NCBI GenBank assembly: GCA_048938005.1
Contig: JBHLMQ010000030.1
Coordinates: 26,381 to 38,804 of the forward strand
Reading direction: 5' to 3'
DNA from: Promethearchaeota archaeon
GTDB taxonomy: Archaea; Asgardarchaeota; Lokiarchaeia; Sigyniarchaeales; SOKP01
Length of the DNA stretch: 12,424 nucleotides
Each line of letters starts with the position of its first letter. Position 1 is the first letter of the stretch. Below, piece by piece: positions 2,284-11,688 of the stretch. Position numbers and translations under genes: made by a program. The notes beneath the pieces are model-generated. The model was given only the letters and a program-made list of their open reading frames with translations, made no database searches and was not told where the DNA came from.

Positions 2284-4182
2284 TTAAAATTTCTCTAAAC
2301 CTAATTCTCTTATTTTTGCTTGAGTTGGATTTCCAGTTATTTTGTCCCATCCACGTTCATCATAATAACCATCAAGTAGTTGATTAGCAATTTCAGGAGT
2401 TATTATGGTTTCTCCGAAAAAATCTCGGAAGATAAGCTCTGTATCTCCAAAATTCAATGGTTTAAACCATTCTTCTGGAAATTTATCATCTTTTCGAGAA
2501 AATCCCACTTTCATGTTTAGAATTTTAAGTAAATTCCAAGATCTTTCAGCTGCTATATGCAAATCCTCAGATTTCATATTAAACCCTGTCACTGCGTTAA
2601 AGAAATCTGTAGCTGATTCTAATCCGTAGAAACGATTCATTTGAGCTCTTGCACAGAGACCTAATGAAGTTAAAACAGTATACCAATCTTCTGAATATCT
2701 TGTCAATCTTCCTATATTTATTACCATTTCTTTTACTGGGGGGGAGAATATTCTAGCAATCGCAGATTTAGGAATACCCATTCTTGAAAAATGAATATTA
2801 AACTTTTCTATTGAACTTCCAGCACCTAAATAGGTTGGAGAGCCTCCAGATGCAACATGAGCACCTTTAGGATTTACAACTTGTTCAAATTCCATAGTAC
2901 CAAGGCGTAAAAGTCGTGGTTCAAATATGATATCTAAACCTTTAACAGTAAGCATTTCATTTTCAATTGAATCATAAGCTTCTGCCAATTTTTTCCATCC
3001 ATCAGCTAAAAGATTTCCAAATTCTTTCCTATATGTGATAATTTCTATAAGTTTAATTAATGTATTATAATCCGTTTTCCATTCCATTCCTGTATTTTCT
3101 TTGGTTAAAATACCTTTCTTATATAAAATTGTACAAAATTTCAACAAAGATGTAATTGTTAATGAATCTAATCCATATCTATTCACAATATCATATGCTT
3201 TAATAGCTTCATCAAAATTTATTAAATTTTCAAGTGTAAACATCAAAGCAGGATTAATGATGGAAGAAGTATAATTTAATAATCCAGAATGACTTCCTTC
3301 TTGGAGTTCAAGAATATCTTTATCACCCATCGGACAAGAAGGACAAGCTATCCGTCGTTTCTTTAACTTATTAAGGTAAATTCGTTCATTACATTGTCTG
3401 GCCTTTTCTTTCTGACCTGAACCTGTTAGCAGCATGCCAACAGGAAGACTTCTCAGCATTCCTAACTGATGCCATGATTCTCTTTGAGGATAATTTTTAA
3501 TGCGTTCTAATAGCTTACTAAATAATTCATTAAATTTTTTCGAATTAGCAATAGAGACTCCTAGAGTTCCTTTTACTGCAATTGCTTTAAGATTTTTAGA
3601 ACCCATAACTGCTCCAAGTCCTCCTCGTCCAAATGTTGATGTTCTATCAATTAAAGCTAGGGAACCTCTTACCAAATTTTCACCAGCTTGTCCAATTGCA
3701 ATTACTCCACAATTATTATGCTTTTTTTGTAAGAAATGAGTTGATTCTACTATATCCCGGCCCCAGATTTCTTTTGCGTCTATTAAATCAATGTTATCAT
3801 CCAATATTAATAAAGAAACTGGTTTATCTGCTTTACCTGAGATGATTACATGGTCAAATCCCGCATGTTTTAACTGGAATCCAAAACTCATACTCCCACA
3901 TGAATAAGCAATTGCCCCTGTTGCTGGAAATTTACTTGTACATACAGTTCGGGAAGATCCAGGGGTTATTGTTCCTACTAAAGGTCCTACACCAATTATG
4001 AGATAATTTTCAGGAGATAATGGATCTATATTTGGCTTAATTAATTCAGCAGCAATCTTTGTATTTATACCAAGTCCACCAATAAATTGCTTAATGTCCT
4101 CAATATTTTGTTTTCTTACAGTTATTTTGTTATCTGTGAGATTAACATTAAGAATCTTACCAGTATATCCTTTCAATTCCAT
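2284..4182 (-). CDS. Aldehyde:ferredoxin oxidoreductase family (tungstopterin, AOR/WOR-like) protein, divergent
   Basis: N-terminus GYTGKILNVNLT, LKHAGFDHVIISGKA, IGQAGEN, GRGGLGAVMGSKNLKAIAV, YGLD, SLGLC and YYDERGWD. Start placed at the ATG at 4182 (TGATG overlap with the ferredoxin stop, preceded by AGGAGGAGG) rather than the TTG at 4185. Confidence 0.92.
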   Translation of the reverse strand: MELKGYTGKILNVNLTDNKITVRKQNIEDIKQFIGGLGINTKIAAELIKPNIDPLSPENYLIIGVGPLVGTITPGSSRTVCTSKFPATGAIAYSCGSMSFGFQLKHAGFDHVIISGKADKPVSLLILDDNIDLIDAKEIWGRDIVESTHFLQKKHNNCGVIAIGQAGENLVRGSLALIDRTSTFGRGGLGAVMGSKNLKAIAVKGTLGVSIANSKKFNELFSKLLERIKNYPQRESWHQLGMLRSLPVGMLLTGSGQKEKARQCNERIYLNKLKKRRIACPSCPMGDKDILELQEGSHSGLLNYTSSIINPALMFTLENLINFDEAIKAYDIVNRYGLDSLTITSLLKFCTILYKKGILTKENTGMEWKTDYNTLIKLIEIITYRKEFGNLLADGWKKLAEAYDSIENEMLTVKGLDIIFEPRLLRLGTMEFEQVVNPKGAHVASGGSPTYLGAGSSIEKFNIHFSRMGIPKSAIARIFSPPVKEMVINIGRLTRYSEDWYTVLTSLGLCARAQMNRFYGLESATDFFNAVTGFNMKSEDLHIAAERSWNLLKILNMKVGFSRKDDKFPEEWFKPLNFGDTELIFRDFFGETIITPEIANQLLDGYYDERGWDKITGNPTQAKIRELGLEKF

Positions 4183-4427
4183 CAATTATCCTCCTCCTTA
4201 AACCTTAGAGCACCATATAAACAATGTTGAACACATTGACCACATTTAATACAGGTGTCTAAAAAAATAATTTTTGGGGCTAATCCATATCTATCCTTTA
4301 TTTCCAAATTAGCCTTTAAGGGATTAAATATCTTATGATGGGTATATGAACACCATAATTTACATAAAATACAACCAGTACACTTTTCCTCATCAATTAA
4401 TATATTAATTATACTTTCTTTTACCAT
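4182..4427 (-). CDS. 2x[4Fe-4S] ferredoxin-type protein, probable AOR partner
   Basis: 81 aa with CTGCILCKLWC and CIKCGQCVQHCLYGAL motifs. Its stop overlaps the AOR start by 1 nt. Confidence 0.9.
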   Translation of the reverse strand: MVKESIINILIDEEKCTGCILCKLWCSYTHHKIFNPLKANLEIKDRYGLAPKIIFLDTCIKCGQCVQHCLYGALRFKEEDN

Positions 4428-4453: not shown

Positions 4454-5944
4454 TTAAAATTTTATTATTAGTCCATTTTTTCTTTCCATTTCTTTCAATA
4501 ATGGGGGTAGTTCTTCAAATTTATTGAAATTTAAATCTAAAATTTTTAATGATGAAAGAGATGCGATTGAATTAGGCAATTTTTCAAGTTTATTCCCCCA
4601 TAAATTAAATACTTCTAAAGATGATAGAATCCCAATCCATTCTGGAAGAGTGGTGAAGTTGTTCCAACTAAGATTTAAAAATTTAAGTGATTTTAATTTT
4701 GTCATTGAAGAGGGCAAATCGCTTAATTGATTATTTCTTAAATTTAGTTTTTCTAGAGAATTTAGGTTTCCTAATGAATCAGGGATATTACATAATTTAT
4801 TATCGTATAATTCTAATTCCTTTAATGAATGAAACGAGCCAATCCATTCTGGAAGCGTTACTAACTTATTACCTCCCATTCCTAACTTTTCTAAGAATAA
4901 AAGTGGTTGAACTTCCTTCGGGATTGTCGTAAAATTATTCCAACCTAGTTCAAGTTCCTTTATTGAGGCACTCAGATTAATTTCTATTGAAGTTAATTTA
5001 TTTCCATGTAAATCTAAAGATTTAAGTGAAGAGAGAGAACTTATTGATGAAGGAAGATGTGTTAACATATTATTTCTCAAATTCAAGTTCTCAAGTGTTT
5101 TAACTAATCCAATCGATTCAGGAAGGTTTCTTAATCTATTAGTTTTTAAGTTTAAAGTCTTGAGTGATTTGAAATAACTGAAATCTGGTAATTTTGTTAT
5201 CTTGTTATAACTTAAATCCAAATATTCAATTGATCTGTTTAAAACAGTTGGGATATTTATAAGATGATTAAACCTTAAATCACACCTTTTAATAGTATTT
5301 AGAGAGAATATTGATTCAAGGATTTTTTCTAGTTTACTTAAACCAGAACTATATCTTTCAACATTAGATAAGTCTAATTCAGTAATCAAACCCGATTCGT
5401 TAATTTCAAACTTTATATAACCAAATGTAAGTTTTAGAGAAGAAAGGATATAATAACTAATCAGTATATCAGTAAGTTCTTTATTAGAAAAATCTTTAAT
5501 ATTCCTTTTCTTAAATAAACCATTTAAATTATATTTATATTTTCTTCTGCGGAATCTATTTAATTTATCAATCAAAACTGATTTAGACTTATCCTGATTA
5601 ATTTCCCCTAATGTTGATATTATTGTTATCAAACATTTTAATGATGTTTCGTGCTCAAAAGCCCATGAGATTGGAGCTAAAGCTTTATTGATATAGAGAT
5701 TCTTTAAAACTTTACATGTTAAATTTCTAACATTTTCATTAGTATCAGAAATTAAAAGATGTTCTAAAAATTTGAAAGTTTTTTCGTCAGTAGTCCCAAT
5801 TTCTTCTAAAATCTTAATACTTTCTATTCGAGTTTCAGGGTTTTCAGCATTGTCAATTAGAGTTAGTAGTAATTCAATTGCAGATGGTCTATCTAAATCC
5901 TTATTTTTTAAATCCTCAGATATCGCGTTTGGAGTTAAAGGCAT
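4454..5944 (-). CDS. Leucine-rich repeat protein with N-terminal HEAT-like helical repeats
   Basis: 496 aa. N-terminal helical repeats (ETRIESIKILEEIG, LLISDTNENVRNLTCKVL) followed by ~12-13 LRRs of 21-23 aa with consensus LxxLxLxxNxLxxLPxxI. Confidence 0.92.
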   Translation of the reverse strand: MPLTPNAISEDLKNKDLDRPSAIELLLTLIDNAENPETRIESIKILEEIGTTDEKTFKFLEHLLISDTNENVRNLTCKVLKNLYINKALAPISWAFEHETSLKCLITIISTLGEINQDKSKSVLIDKLNRFRRRKYKYNLNGLFKKRNIKDFSNKELTDILISYYILSSLKLTFGYIKFEINESGLITELDLSNVERYSSGLSKLEKILESIFSLNTIKRCDLRFNHLINIPTVLNRSIEYLDLSYNKITKLPDFSYFKSLKTLNLKTNRLRNLPESIGLVKTLENLNLRNNMLTHLPSSISSLSSLKSLDLHGNKLTSIEINLSASIKELELGWNNFTTIPKEVQPLLFLEKLGMGGNKLVTLPEWIGSFHSLKELELYDNKLCNIPDSLGNLNSLEKLNLRNNQLSDLPSSMTKLKSLKFLNLSWNNFTTLPEWIGILSSLEVFNLWGNKLEKLPNSIASLSSLKILDLNFNKFEELPPLLKEMERKNGLIIKF

Positions 5945-8865: not shown

Positions 8866-8973
8866 CTTAATTTCACTTCAATAAAAATAATTAATAAATT
8901 AGAAAATAATTTTTAAAATAAAAACTTAAAAGAAAGATATAACACTTTTCTATAAATATAAAAATATAGAATT

Positions 8974-9038
8974 CCGAAACCTTCACAAGGCTAGTCCCAA
9001 TTCAACTAAAATTTATTTGAAAGGGTCATTCTATTCGG
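8974..9038 (-). promoter_or_regulatory. Putative SECIS element, eukaryote-like kink-turn type
   Basis: Minus-strand RNA: CCGAA-UAG-AAU-GA-CCCUUUCAAAU-AAAUUUU-AGUUGAAUUGG-GA-CUA-GCCUU-GUG-AAGGU-UUCGG. AUGA at 9029-9026, AAA 11 nt later in the apical loop, GA at 8996-8995. It directly follows two genes with in-frame UGA at Cys positions. Folded by hand. Confidence 0.78.
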
Positions 9039-9501
9039 TTTTTTTCTTTTTTGATTCTTTCTCCTCTTTCTTAGAAGAATTAGAATCTTTTAAAGGATTG
9101 CTACCTAAGTTTTTTATAATCTCTGAAATGCGACTAGCTTCTTCTTGAAATCTTTGTCCTTCAGCAGCACTACAGTGAAACATTTGAATTCTCTCTGGTG
9201 AAAGTCCAACTATTCTAAGAATTTCTTTTGTATATTTAACATTCCTTTCTGCAACCAAATTCCCACTTTCATAGTCACATTCACCTTGGTATCAAGCTCC
9301 GATGACGATTCCGTCAGCACCCTTACCTATTGCTCGCATCATTAAAGAAGGAGTTACTCTTCCAGAGCAATTAATCCTCACAGGTCTAAGTGTTGCGGGA
9401 TATTGCGCTCTTATAGTACCTGCCATATCACCAGCACCATATCCTCACTTCCAGCATAAAAATGCTAAAATTTTCATATCTCCATTAGATCTACTTGCCA
9501 A
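9031..9501 (-). CDS. mvhD: MvhD/VhuD (F420-non-reducing hydrogenase delta / FlpD family) [2Fe-2S] subunit, selenoprotein with 2 Sec
   Basis: One continuous frame: (M)ASRSNGDMKILAFLCWK-U-GYGAGDMAG...RINCSGRV...GADGIVIGA-U-YQGECDYESGN...SAAEG. TGA at 9445-9447 and 9292-9294, TAG stop at 9031-9033. The TTG start at 9501 lies 5 nt after GAGGTGA; an alternative ATG is at 9477. 156 aa. Confidence 0.93.
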
Positions 9502-9506
9502 TTATT

Positions 9507-9513
9507 TCACCTC
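9507..9513 (-). promoter_or_regulatory. Shine-Dalgarno site for mvhD
   Basis: GAGGTGA within the 13-nt hdrA-mvhD gap, 5 nt upstream of the in-frame TTG. Confidence 0.75.
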
Positions 9514-9514
9514 T

Positions 9515-11491
9515 CTATACCTCTTCTAGAATTGCGTCTATTTGTTTTTCATATTGAGGTTCTCTATAATATCTAAGGGTTATGGCTTCTGAAGGACAAT
9601 TAGCCAAACAACTGCCACATCCCCTACATAAAATCTCATTCACCTCAGCTCCATCATCGTTTAGATTTATAGCGTTATATGGGCAATTCAACTCACATAA
9701 TCCACATTTTGCACATCGTTCTTTATCAACCGATGCTCGGATCAGTAAAATCCGATATTTGTCTTTTCCCATTAGTCTAGCAAGTGAAGATGCTGCTGCT
9801 CTACCTTGTGCTATAGATTCAACTATAGATTTTGGACCTTGGCTGACTCCTGCAAGAACTATTCCAGGAATCTTTGTATCTATTGGATTTAATCTAGCAT
9901 GAAATTCTTTAAAGAATCCATCTTGACTGTTTTCCAATTTAAGTATCTTTCCTATTTTTTTAACACCAGTAGCGGGAACCATTGATGCAGAAAGTACAAC
10001 CAAATCATACTCTAGTTCTTTTAATCCACTTGAACCCAATGTATTTTGCATGATTATTTTTAGATTATGAGTATTAGGATCTTCTTTTATTCTGCTTATG
10101 TTTGTTCTAATATATTTTATACCCTCCTTCCTTGAGAGAGTGAAATATTCTTCATAATCTTTCCCAGCAGCTCGCATATCCATATAAGCAACAGTAATAT
10201 CTGCCTCTGGATAATGTTGTTTGATTAATTTACTGTTCTTTATTGAAATCATACAGCATACACCAGAGCTACAATAAGTATTCATGTTTAAATCCCTTGA
10301 GCCTACACATTGAATGAATAATATTTTTTTTGGTTCTTTCCCATCCGAAGGTCTTACCAAATGTCCTATGGTTGGTCCGTTCGGAGCTAACATTCTTTCA
10401 AGTTTTAGTTGAGTAATTACATTAGGATATTTATTATAGCCCAAATAGCCCATAGGTGGTTCAAATTCATCCCAACCTGTAGCGACCACGATTGAGCCTA
10501 CATCAATCTCTACGATTTCGTCTTGTTGATCAAAATCAATCGCGTCTAGTTCACATGCTCCTTTACATAATTCACATTTGATACATCGTTCCATATCAAT
10601 TTGGGCTAAAGAAGGAACCGCTTGAGCAAATGACACATATATAGCTCTCCTTGAATCCATTCCCTCATTGAATTCATTATAACCAAAAGCGGGGCACACT
10701 TCAAAGCATGCTCCACACCCATTACAATCATTTGTTACATATCGTGCCCTCTTTCTAATTTTTACAGTAAAATTCCCTACAAAACCAGAAACATCTTCAA
10801 CATCACTATACGTGTATAAATTGAGTCCAGGTGTTCTTGCCGCTTGAAGCATTACTGGCCCCAATATTCATATACTACAATCATCTGTAGGAAATGTTCG
10901 ATCTAATTTAGCCATTTTGCCACCTATGGTAGGATTTTTTTCTACAAGATGTACTTCAAAACCTTCTTCAGCTAGATCGATTCCTGCAGACAATCCCGCT
11001 ACTCCACCGCCAATTATTAAAGCTTTTTTTGTTATATCAACTTCTTTAACTAAGATCTTTTCTAAAACAGAAGCTCTTGCTACGGCTGATCGCATTATAT
11101 CTTCAGCAACTTTTTGAGCTCCTAGTTTATCTTTTTTATGTACAAAACTAGAATGTTCACGGATATTAGCAAATTCAAGATAGGATGAATCAATACCCAT
11201 TGCTTCTAAGACACTTTTAAAAACGGGCTCATGAGTTTTAGGTGTACATGATGCTACAACTAATCTATTTGCATTTGTTTCGACCATTTTTTGTTTTATG
11301 AATTCTGCACCAGGTTCTGTACAAAGACTGATATATCGCTCTGCAGCAACTACATTTGGCAATGTCTTTGAGAATTCTACTAAAGCAGAATTGTCAATTA
11401 CCTCAGCAATATTAAGCCCTCAATCGCAAATTAAAACAGCAATCCTTATTTCTTCGTCATATTGATTTGTCTTGTTTGTTGTTTCTACCAT
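9515..11491 (-). CDS. hdrA: Heterodisulfide reductase subunit A (electron-bifurcating FAD/Fe-S protein), selenoprotein with 2 Sec
   Basis: Single frame from the ATG at 11491 (after AAGGT) to TAG at 9515-9517, 658 aa, joining ORF-track fragments 10868-11362 and 9515-10864. In-frame TGA at 11420-11422 ([14 protein letters not shown]; canonical CxCG) and 10868-10870 ([14 protein letters not shown]; canonical DCxxCIL). Also GGGVAG FAD motif, four CxxCxxCxxxC motifs and QCVGSRD...YCS...CCM. Confidence 0.95.
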
Positions 11492-11688
11492 TGCATATTA
11501 CCTTTTTATGATTTCTTTTTAATTTCCTCCAGCTTTGTTATTATAATTTAAATACAAATCTAAATGGTACAAATTAATTAAATAAATTTAAATTGTCTTA
11601 ATAAAATGTTTCTTATAGTTAAAAATTATTTTAAATATAAATTGAATTGTTAATAATTAAAATCATTTGAAATTATAAGGTGGAATAT
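11492..11688. promoter_or_regulatory. AT-rich divergent promoter region between hdrA and the membrane-protein gene
   Basis: ~197-bp intergenic gap between head-to-head genes with several TATA-like TTTAAA/TTATAA tracts. Exact boxes cannot be assigned. Confidence 0.5.

Follow-up and report, generated by a model that had tools for sequence, protein, structure and literature searches.

Two adjacent minus-strand genes, hdrA and vhuD (the latter also named mvhD), in a 12,424-nucleotide (nt) stretch of DNA from a Promethearchaeota archaeon very probably form a selenoprotein operon of the Asgard kind, in which four in-frame UGA codons would be read as selenocysteine (Sec) by means of a single selenocysteine insertion sequence (SECIS) at the 3' end. 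The stretch, called the window below, corresponds to positions 26,381 to 38,804 of contig JBHLMQ010000030.1 in assembly GCA_048938005.1 (G000:C49:26381-38804 in our numbering). This genome of 3.72 Mb is distributed over 101 contigs, and is 95% complete with an estimated contamination of 7% and a G+C content of 30%. Promethearchaeota is an archaeal phylum in the NCBI taxonomy, which we take to be the same as the Asgard archaea.

Under genetic code table 11, the minus strand between 9031 and 11491 is split into pieces of 164, 449, 44 and 75 amino acids (aa). A first-pass annotation, made from the letters and their open reading frames (ORFs), had joined these pieces into two continuous frames containing four TGA codons and free of frameshifts, TAA and TAG. 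The read-through frames agree with it exactly, as their 814 codons contain no frameshift and no internal TAA or TAG. The upstream gene, hdrA (9515..11491, minus strand), comprises 658 codons from an ATG start to a TAG stop and encodes an HdrA-family flavin/iron-sulfur subunit. Its two in-frame UGA codons are codon 24 (11420..11422, minus strand, in the context LICD-U-GLNI) and codon 208 (10868..10870, minus strand, DDCSI-U-ILGP). Residues 13-655 of the product align with residues 2-650 of 5odc_A, the solved HdrA chain of M. thermolithotrophicus (E-value 2.5e-200), so that both TGA sites are spanned; four more solved HdrA chains match at E-values of 5e-193 to 9e-163. Pfam recognizes NAD_binding_8/Pyr_redox_2, a FAD/NAD-type Rossmann motif, at residues 156-207, and four Fer4 stretches. 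The scores remained under the cut-offs of the NCBIfam models HdrA2 (773.7 versus 1100 bits), HdrA (587.9 versus 1400) and HdrA_Methbact (528.3 versus 1300), models that carry a fused MvhD-like C-terminus (profile 777 long, matched at 1-643). We therefore file the product in the HdrA family, and not as an equivalog of the methanogen enzymes.

The downstream gene, vhuD (9031..9501, minus strand), has 156 codons, a TTG start and a TAG stop, and encodes an iron-sulfur subunit of the FlpD family. Here the UGA codons are codon 19 (9445..9447, minus strand, LCWK-U-GYGA) and codon 70 (9292..9294, minus strand, VIGA-U-YQGEC). The product covers the whole Pfam FlpD profile across both TGAs (PF02662, 1-123 of 123; 136.7 bits for a cut-off of 22.3, E-value 5.3e-40), and solved VhuD/MvhD chains match it at E-values between 2.6e-33 (9sfi_K) and 1.8e-28; its score is under the NCBIfam VhuD cut-off (141.9 versus 215 bits). 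The family alignments proposed at first pass thus run through all four TGAs. Just 13 nt separate the hdrA stop from the vhuD start. They accommodate a Shine-Dalgarno-like motif, AGAGGTGA (9507..9514, minus strand), which directly follows the hdrA stop, is found again in the loci of relatives, and ends 5 nt before the TTG at 9501. Relatives start vhuD with ATG, GTG or TTG at the homologous place past the conserved motif, which upholds the codon numbering from TTG 9501 used previously. The ATG at 9477 was considered as a start and rejected, being mostly an Ile codon in related loci.

All four UGA codons fall on positions occupied by Cys in homologues, as had been claimed from the sequence. Codons 24 and 208 of hdrA lie on Cys13 and Cys197 of 5odc_A, the second of which is the canonical Sec site of HdrA; the two vhuD codons both lie on Cys in 8rvu_F and on X, a non-standard residue, in 9sfi_K. 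These two X residues bear out the statement that methanococcal VhuD has Sec at both sites. For HdrA, the corresponding statement, of Sec at the DCxxU site, matches Sec197 of M. maripaludis, which possibly takes part in a selenenylsulfide relay between FAD and cluster, according to the text of PMC13518236. The additional suggestion that the four positions are mostly Fe-S ligands was borne out in part: such a role is documented solely for the Cys197 position, in the text of PMC9012536.

To evaluate conservation, one genome per species was scanned and the best 80 of 219 confirmed loci were kept, with vhuD identities of 67-93%. Their titles name Promethearchaeota, Hodarchaeota, Hermodarchaeota, Thorarchaeota, Odinarchaeota or 'uncultured archaeon'. 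An upstream hdrA was present in 75 of the 80 loci, the other five being contig-end cuts or giving no match, and the translated frames were aligned by script. Both vhuD sites are TGA in 80/80 loci. Codon 208 of hdrA is TGA in each of the 71 loci covering it; for codon 24 the count is 67 of 69, and the remaining two have a Cys codon. A further TGA occurs at the equivalent of window Cys57 in 28 loci, one of which has yet another at the equivalent of Cys82. The codon that ends hdrA behaves differently: at the homologous C-terminus of 70 full-length relatives it is TAG in 44 and TAA in 26, and never TGA. A UGA used as hdrA stop would itself be recoded, as argued in the text of Mariotti 2016 (PMC4989117); since the stop in the window is UAG, it cannot be recoded as Sec. 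Sequencing error, an objection anticipated at first pass, was addressed on the same codons with contigs from four public runs (four studies), one of which may be the source of the window, placed on 8900-11600. Both vhuD TGAs are inside 0-difference contigs of runs X1, X4 and X6, and the one at 9294-9292 also in X13; in X4, a further 0-difference contig includes the TGA at 10870-10868, although just 3 nt from its end.

One nt past the vhuD stop begins a eukaryote-like type I SECIS core (8995..9029, minus strand), and a like element is present in 80/80 relatives. It is composed of AUGA (9029-9026), a stem (9025-9017 with 9005-8997), an apical loop of 11 nt (9016-9006, AUAAAUUUUAG) and GA (8996-8995). 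All these parts are within the Asgard model that we took from the texts of PMC11227280 and PMC4989117, namely an (A/G)UGA ... (G/A)A core, a stem of 7-15 base pairs (bp) with at most 2 mismatches and a loop of 8-20 nt (9 bp and 11 nt in Loki). AUGA, at least 7 of 9 stem pairs, a loop of 11-12 nt and GA are found together in 77/80 relatives; two others have GUGA, and one has 6/9 pairs. The published loop also opens with an A-run; here, loop positions 3-5 are A in 78/78 sequences, while positions 1-2 vary. In an alignment of 78 sequences, 71 of them distinct, 90.1% of the stem cells are paired; sliding the 3' partner by 1-3 columns lowers this value to 36-52%. All nine pairs show changes on both sides, for a covariation score of 0.652 compared with at most 0.201 in the slid versions. 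The stem contains a non-standard 2x2 patch (C-U and U-U, 9022-9023 with 8999-9000) that is common to the closest relatives, for example L027, L028, L044 and L046, and contigs of other runs show a variant at 9023 that makes CCC into CCU. This patch is tolerated, and is not an error.

A covariance model built from the 78-sequence SECIS alignment, named R1, was run on the window with filters off and gave one strong match, of 58.3 bits, the next best reaching 10.6. From this single match we conclude that there is one SECIS for both genes and that none follows hdrA. Its distance to the UGA codons is about 263 and 416 nt in vhuD, and about 1.84 and 2.39 kb in hdrA.

These features suggest the following scheme. 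The two genes, 13 nt apart, would be transcribed as one mRNA, with vhuD initiating at its UUG behind its own Shine-Dalgarno-like motif. An EFSec-type factor would deliver Sec-tRNA(Sec), and insertion at all four UGAs would be directed by the single 3' SECIS. The products would be the core of a flavin-based electron-bifurcation enzyme (HdrA) and its [2Fe-2S] electron-entry subunit (VhuD). HdrA would carry selenium at the Cys197 equivalent and in its N-terminal cluster domain, and VhuD at two conserved Cys sites. Since the 95%-complete genome yielded no match to MCR_alpha (mcrA), the enzyme probably has a physiological acceptor other than the CoM-S-S-CoB pair of methanogens.

The genome search for a Sec machinery that the first-pass annotation had recommended was productive. 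A tRNA-Sec scores 61.7 bits with RF01852 (cut-off 47) and is called tRNA-SeC with anticodon tca (UCA) by ARAGORN. It adjoins a SepSecS gene (TIGR03531, 485 bits for a cut-off of 224.85). Two selD genes lie in tandem at G000:C86:1934-4019 (TIGR00476, 183 and 165 bits, cut-off 125), and each contains one in-frame TGA. R1 gives no match behind the selD pair, which fits the distinct type II SECIS reported for selD. SepSecS and tRNA-Sec belong to a Sec-gene cluster at G000:C97:100492-107065, in which an EFSec-like gene is located about 4 kb away from them. Judging by profile matches, EFSec and PSTK are likely present in the genome.

Several observations weigh against this interpretation. The PSTK-like gene reaches 146.2 bits with TIGR03574 (profile 1-248 of 249), for a cut-off of 290.5, and the SelB/EFSec-like frame, of 474 aa, obtains 231.9 bits with the bacterial SelB model TIGR00475, for a cut-off of 242.25. 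The machinery is on other contigs, tied to the same organism by binning alone in a bin of 101 contigs. The SECIS stem has 7/9 standard pairs, its C-U and U-U being the limit allowed by the published Asgard model. The set used for covariation was preselected for at least 7/9 pairs, which inflates the paired percentage, although not the homologous placement, and the window is itself among the 78 training sequences of R1. Rfam (E-value mode) found no SECIS family in the window, with chance-level matches to ar14 (E-value 1.3) and ceN40 (E-value 8.5) only, and the single-sequence fold of 8950-9050 is no better than that of shuffles (z 0.02), so that thermodynamics alone fails to single out the element. 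The segment 11357-11600, including the codon-24 TGA at 11422-11420, has no cover in any of the four runs. Finally, the sequencing runs listed for the locus include no RNA run, and co-transcription and Sec insertion are both what we infer from sequence.

Four other explanations of the TGA codons were weighed. The UGAs might be recoded partly or mainly as Cys or a near-cognate residue, for example under selenium scarcity. Two relatives do have Cys at codon 24, and Sec is not strictly needed at the HdrA site according to the text of PMC13518236. The genome also contains full-length Cys-type hdrA paralogues: a protein search recovered five TGA-containing hdrA genes, at least three full-length genes that lack TGA, and numerous fused forms. 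Yet nearly all relatives strictly keep UGA and not UGY, and the organism appears to maintain the complete Sec pathway, including two selD genes that themselves need Sec. We consider Cys recoding unlikely by a wide measure.

A second explanation is that UGA terminates, as usual, and that the pieces, such as the 449-aa HdrA C-terminus, are separate polypeptides that assemble, the 3' structure having another function such as transcription termination. A start-like Met stands 6 codons past U208, where database entries begin, and a T run follows the second hairpin of the 3' region (described below). Of the 120 best database matches to the read-through HdrA, 91 are truncated to 434-469 aa, in most cases 445-446 aa, and mostly begin with MLQAAR or similar, six residues past the Sec site, under the names '4Fe-4S binding protein' or 'heterodisulfide reductase subunit A'; four entries are of other lengths. 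Against this, neither a conserved start nor a separate ribosome-binding site exists for codons 25-207 of hdrA or 20-69 of vhuD, and the breaks coincide exactly with Cys positions, catalytic or ligand, at which Methanococcus has Sec. The AUGA...GA core and the stem geometry fit the published Asgard SECIS, as the A-run of the loop may also do, and the same element is found behind unrelated genes with an in-frame TGA. Independent assembling pieces are, accordingly, highly improbable.

The last two explanations have a negligible probability. Genome-wide reassignment of UGA as an ordinary sense codon, Trp (table 4) or Gly (table 25), would account for the 25 full-length HdrA entries among these 120 relatives, all 25 with W at both sites, and for WW in relatives of a Sec-Sec family presented below, but such entries show only that some gene callers chose such a code, while 271 of 2147 ORFs of at least 200 aa in the whole genome end in TGA, read-through past TGA (median 7 codons) is as short as past TAA or TAG (8 each), the large neighbours in the window are open under table 11, the four sites are Cys or Sec and never Trp or Gly in solved homologues, and a dedicated tRNA-Sec (UCA) and a SECIS exist. 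TGA is a normal stop in this genome, which excludes reassignment and answers an objection that had been foreseen at the outset. The Trp entries, whose contigs measure about 2-6 kb, are artefacts that arise systematically when short contigs are gene-called with a TGA=Trp model. Errors of sequencing or assembly, or mutations that made both genes pseudogenes, would agree with the fragmentation under table 11, but are contradicted by the presence of TGA at the same codons in 67-80 independent assemblies, whose identities go as low as about 67%, by the vhuD TGAs lying in 0-difference contigs of runs from different studies, and by the 814 codons having no other stop or frameshift. The prediction that standard pipelines would mishandle these genes held for truncation and Trp reading of the relatives, and failed for pseudogene flags.

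The Sec operon interpretation being retained, the flanks of its SECIS deserve a description. Upstream of the core, CCGAA (9034..9038, minus strand), which spans the last two sense codons of vhuD, is predicted to pair with UUCGG (8974..8978, minus strand) as a lower helix. Between the SECIS GA and the 3' strand of this helix, a second hairpin, G-CCUU-GUG-AAGG-U, occupies 8979..8991 (minus strand), and a run of five T (8960..8964, minus strand) that may be an archaeal transcription stop comes after. In a wider alignment of 78 hdrA-vhuD loci sequences (76 distinct), CCG is present upstream of the core in 78/78, in differing reading-frame registers, which indicates that this strand is conserved as RNA and not as protein; UCGG is likewise invariant in 78/78. 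Given that both strands are invariant, covariation in the vhuD set is uninformative on the lower helix. An automated search for it returned mixed registers, as GGUUU of the second hairpin is an alternative partner for AAACC. The second hairpin itself is paired in 89.7% of cells over the 76 distinct sequences, with changes on both sides in 2/5 pairs; one of its pairs is A-U in 39 sequences, U-A in 20, U-G in 6 and C-G in 3. It starts 3-4 nt after GA in these elements, and was seen by eye in the flanks of 9 SECIS elements of this genome. One of the latter, on contig C12, has CCCC/GGGG as lower helix. In the Sec-Sec family, 20/20 SECIS have a second hairpin of different sequence, 93.0% paired, with 3/5 pairs changed on both sides.

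We tentatively raise the possibility, which we hold to be on the unlikely side, that the recoding signal exceeds the published two-helix SECIS and consists of a three-helix junction of lower helix, AUGA/GA arm and second hairpin, a geometry reminiscent of a k-junction. If so, the second hairpin could be the docking site of a still-unknown archaeal SECIS-binding factor, and the junction could explain how a single element acts on UGAs 2.4 kb upstream over two cistrons. The second hairpin could instead belong to a terminator. The texts of PMC4989117 and PMC11227280 model the core, upper stem and loop, touch on lower stems briefly, and in the parts available contain no mention of the CCGAA/UUCGG helix with second hairpin. 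A literature search found no paper on a 'three-way junction' in Asgard SECIS, the figures and supplements of the key papers being outside its coverage. The extended SECIS is possibly new, but priority cannot be claimed, as those figures and supplements may show the hairpin, or the additional selenoprotein families described below.

Apart from these flanks, the locus belongs to a known kind. That multi-Sec HdrA and VhuD exist in Lokiarchaeota, as the first-pass annotation had stated, is confirmed by the texts of Mariotti 2016 (PMC4989117) and Huang 2024 (PMC11227280), which already contain this arrangement, so that the window adds a further member. The former describes Loki HdrA and VhuD as an invariable tandem pair separated by a very short spacer: HdrA contains up to four Sec, drawn from five possible positions that include the canonical one, and always ends in UAA/UAG, VhuD contains two Sec, and one lokiSECIS is located after vhuD only (AUGA, 9-bp stem, 11-nt loop). 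The latter reports 1439 selenoprotein sequences in 227 Asgard genomes, where Sec users have HdrA in 58.1% and FrhD/VhuD in 57.3%, with a shared eSECIS-like type I element. The window shares with such Lokiarchaeota/Asgard HdrA-VhuD (FrhD) pairs the gene order, strand, short spacer, a multi-Sec HdrA including the canonical site close to residue 200, a VhuD with two Sec, a lone SECIS (AUGA, 9-position stem, 11-nt loop, GA) abutting the vhuD stop and an hdrA ending in UAA/UAG. It differs in the loop, which begins with AUAAA and not with AAAAA as reported in the Loki text, and in the non-standard stem patch.

Comparison with other Sec systems delimits what is particular to the operon. HdrA and VhuD of Methanococcales (9sfi, 5odc; text of PMC13518236) belong to the same families and have Sec at matching positions, one in HdrA and two in VhuD, and hdrA-vhuD adjacency is common to both according to the text of PMC4989117. 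However, as far as these texts describe them, Methanococcales use a euryarchaeal GAA_A-type SECIS, one per gene, and a single-Sec HdrA, whereas the window has one eukaryote-like SECIS for two genes. The window HdrA moreover has a second Sec in the N-terminal domain, and its genome yielded no mcrA. Relative to eukaryotic type I SECIS, with their kink-turn AUGA/GA core, and to multi-Sec mRNAs such as SelP, the window element would serve two cistrons, and has a shorter, fixed stem and an additional hairpin in the 3' strand of the internal loop. According to the text of Mariotti (PMC4989117), Asgard archaea have no known SBP2.

The same type of element occurs elsewhere in the genome. In the 3.72 Mb, R1 has 7 matches, none of them more than 86 nt past an ORF with an in-frame TGA, and four of these ORFs are hdrA or vhuD. 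This search scored 150 of 14,762 first-look candidates and missed the elements on contigs C21 and C9, which were recovered by a loose pattern scan; the 38 matches of that scan are mostly likely noise in a 30% G+C genome, and were kept only behind TGA-containing ORFs. A second hdrA-vhuD pair, at G000:C12:49418-51851, has four TGAs in hdrA, at the equivalents of codons 24, 57, 82 and 208. Others are at G000:C18:17254-19738 (hdrA with 2 UGA, and vhuD) and, from the pattern scan, at G000:C21:7378-9866 (a fifth Sec-hdrA, with vhuD). At G000:C78:7090-9160, an hdrA with two TGAs is followed, 11 nt past its stop, by its own SECIS (AUGA...AA core) and not by a vhuD, contrary to the 'always in tandem' rule of the literature; a gene for a NiFe-hydrogenase large subunit and fused forms of hdrA lie in the vicinity.

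Beyond these genes, a 436-aa frame for a NiFe-hydrogenase large subunit is followed, around G000:C9 12840-13033, by a VhuU-like ORF of about 50 aa (FDC-U-LSCAAH). This ORF stops at the UGA contained in the AUGA of its SECIS, a situation that the text of Mariotti reports for VhuU.1. Two short membrane ORFs with one in-frame TGA each precede R1 matches: one of 45 aa (C73, L108:1280-1417, plus strand; GGTG-U-GG; 41.4 bits) and one of 78 aa (C80, L105:580-816, minus strand; EPT-U-PSTC; 50.9 bits). Both have a basic N-terminal stretch, one hydrophobic helix and the TGA near the C-terminal part, and a search of 40 same-family genomes with the 78-aa ORF as query did not recover it.

The Sec-Sec family was encountered as a 158-aa ORF at G000:C17:134497-134970 (L109:1019-1492, plus strand), with two adjacent TGAs in the motif HAD-U-U-AD and a SECIS at C17:134979-135019. 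It has 191 database relatives, mostly of exactly 118 aa and cut at the first TGA; the few full-length ones that were aligned read WW. In 200 sampled genomes of the phylum, the family was present in 36/40 of the GTDB family of the window, 1/3 of a sister family and 0/157 others, every site-covering match had at least two in-frame TGAs, and none was of a Cys form. Both TGAs are conserved without exception in 23/23 aligned loci, and R1 matches just 3' of the gene in about 20 of 30 loci. Pfam gave no match to the protein. Its AlphaFold model (pLDDT 84.9) has a weak beta-grasp likeness to SAMP1, Urm1 and MoaD-like proteins (E-value about 7e-3), and a Foldseek search with it gave no PDB match at an E-value of 0.001 or below. 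Identity with the CxxC Prx-like family in the text of Mariotti was considered and rejected, and the family is absent from the archaeal selenoprotein families named in the accessible part of a 2026 review. It may be a new, obligate Sec-Sec protein family.

Around the operon, the window encodes a TPR protein, a nucleoside-phosphorylase-like protein, a 496-aa protein with HEAT and leucine-rich repeats (4454-5944, minus strand), a ferredoxin with an aldehyde:ferredoxin oxidoreductase (2284-4427, minus strand) and a DNA ligase. It contains neither hdrBC nor hydrogenase genes, and ARAGORN detected no tRNA in it. Many CCG-domain genes are found elsewhere in the genome.

At this locus, gene calling with table 11 destroys two genes of energy metabolism. 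As database entries are cut or carry Trp, the Asgard metabolic reconstructions built on them misdescribe HdrA/VhuD modules. The window adds an instance, with figures for conservation and covariation, in which one eukaryote-like SECIS would serve four UGAs in two cistrons over 2.4 kb, and this single-SECIS instance bears on the origin of the eukaryotic Sec system. The extra hairpin and the Sec-Sec family are leads towards, respectively, the unknown archaeal SECIS-binding factor and undiscovered selenoproteins.

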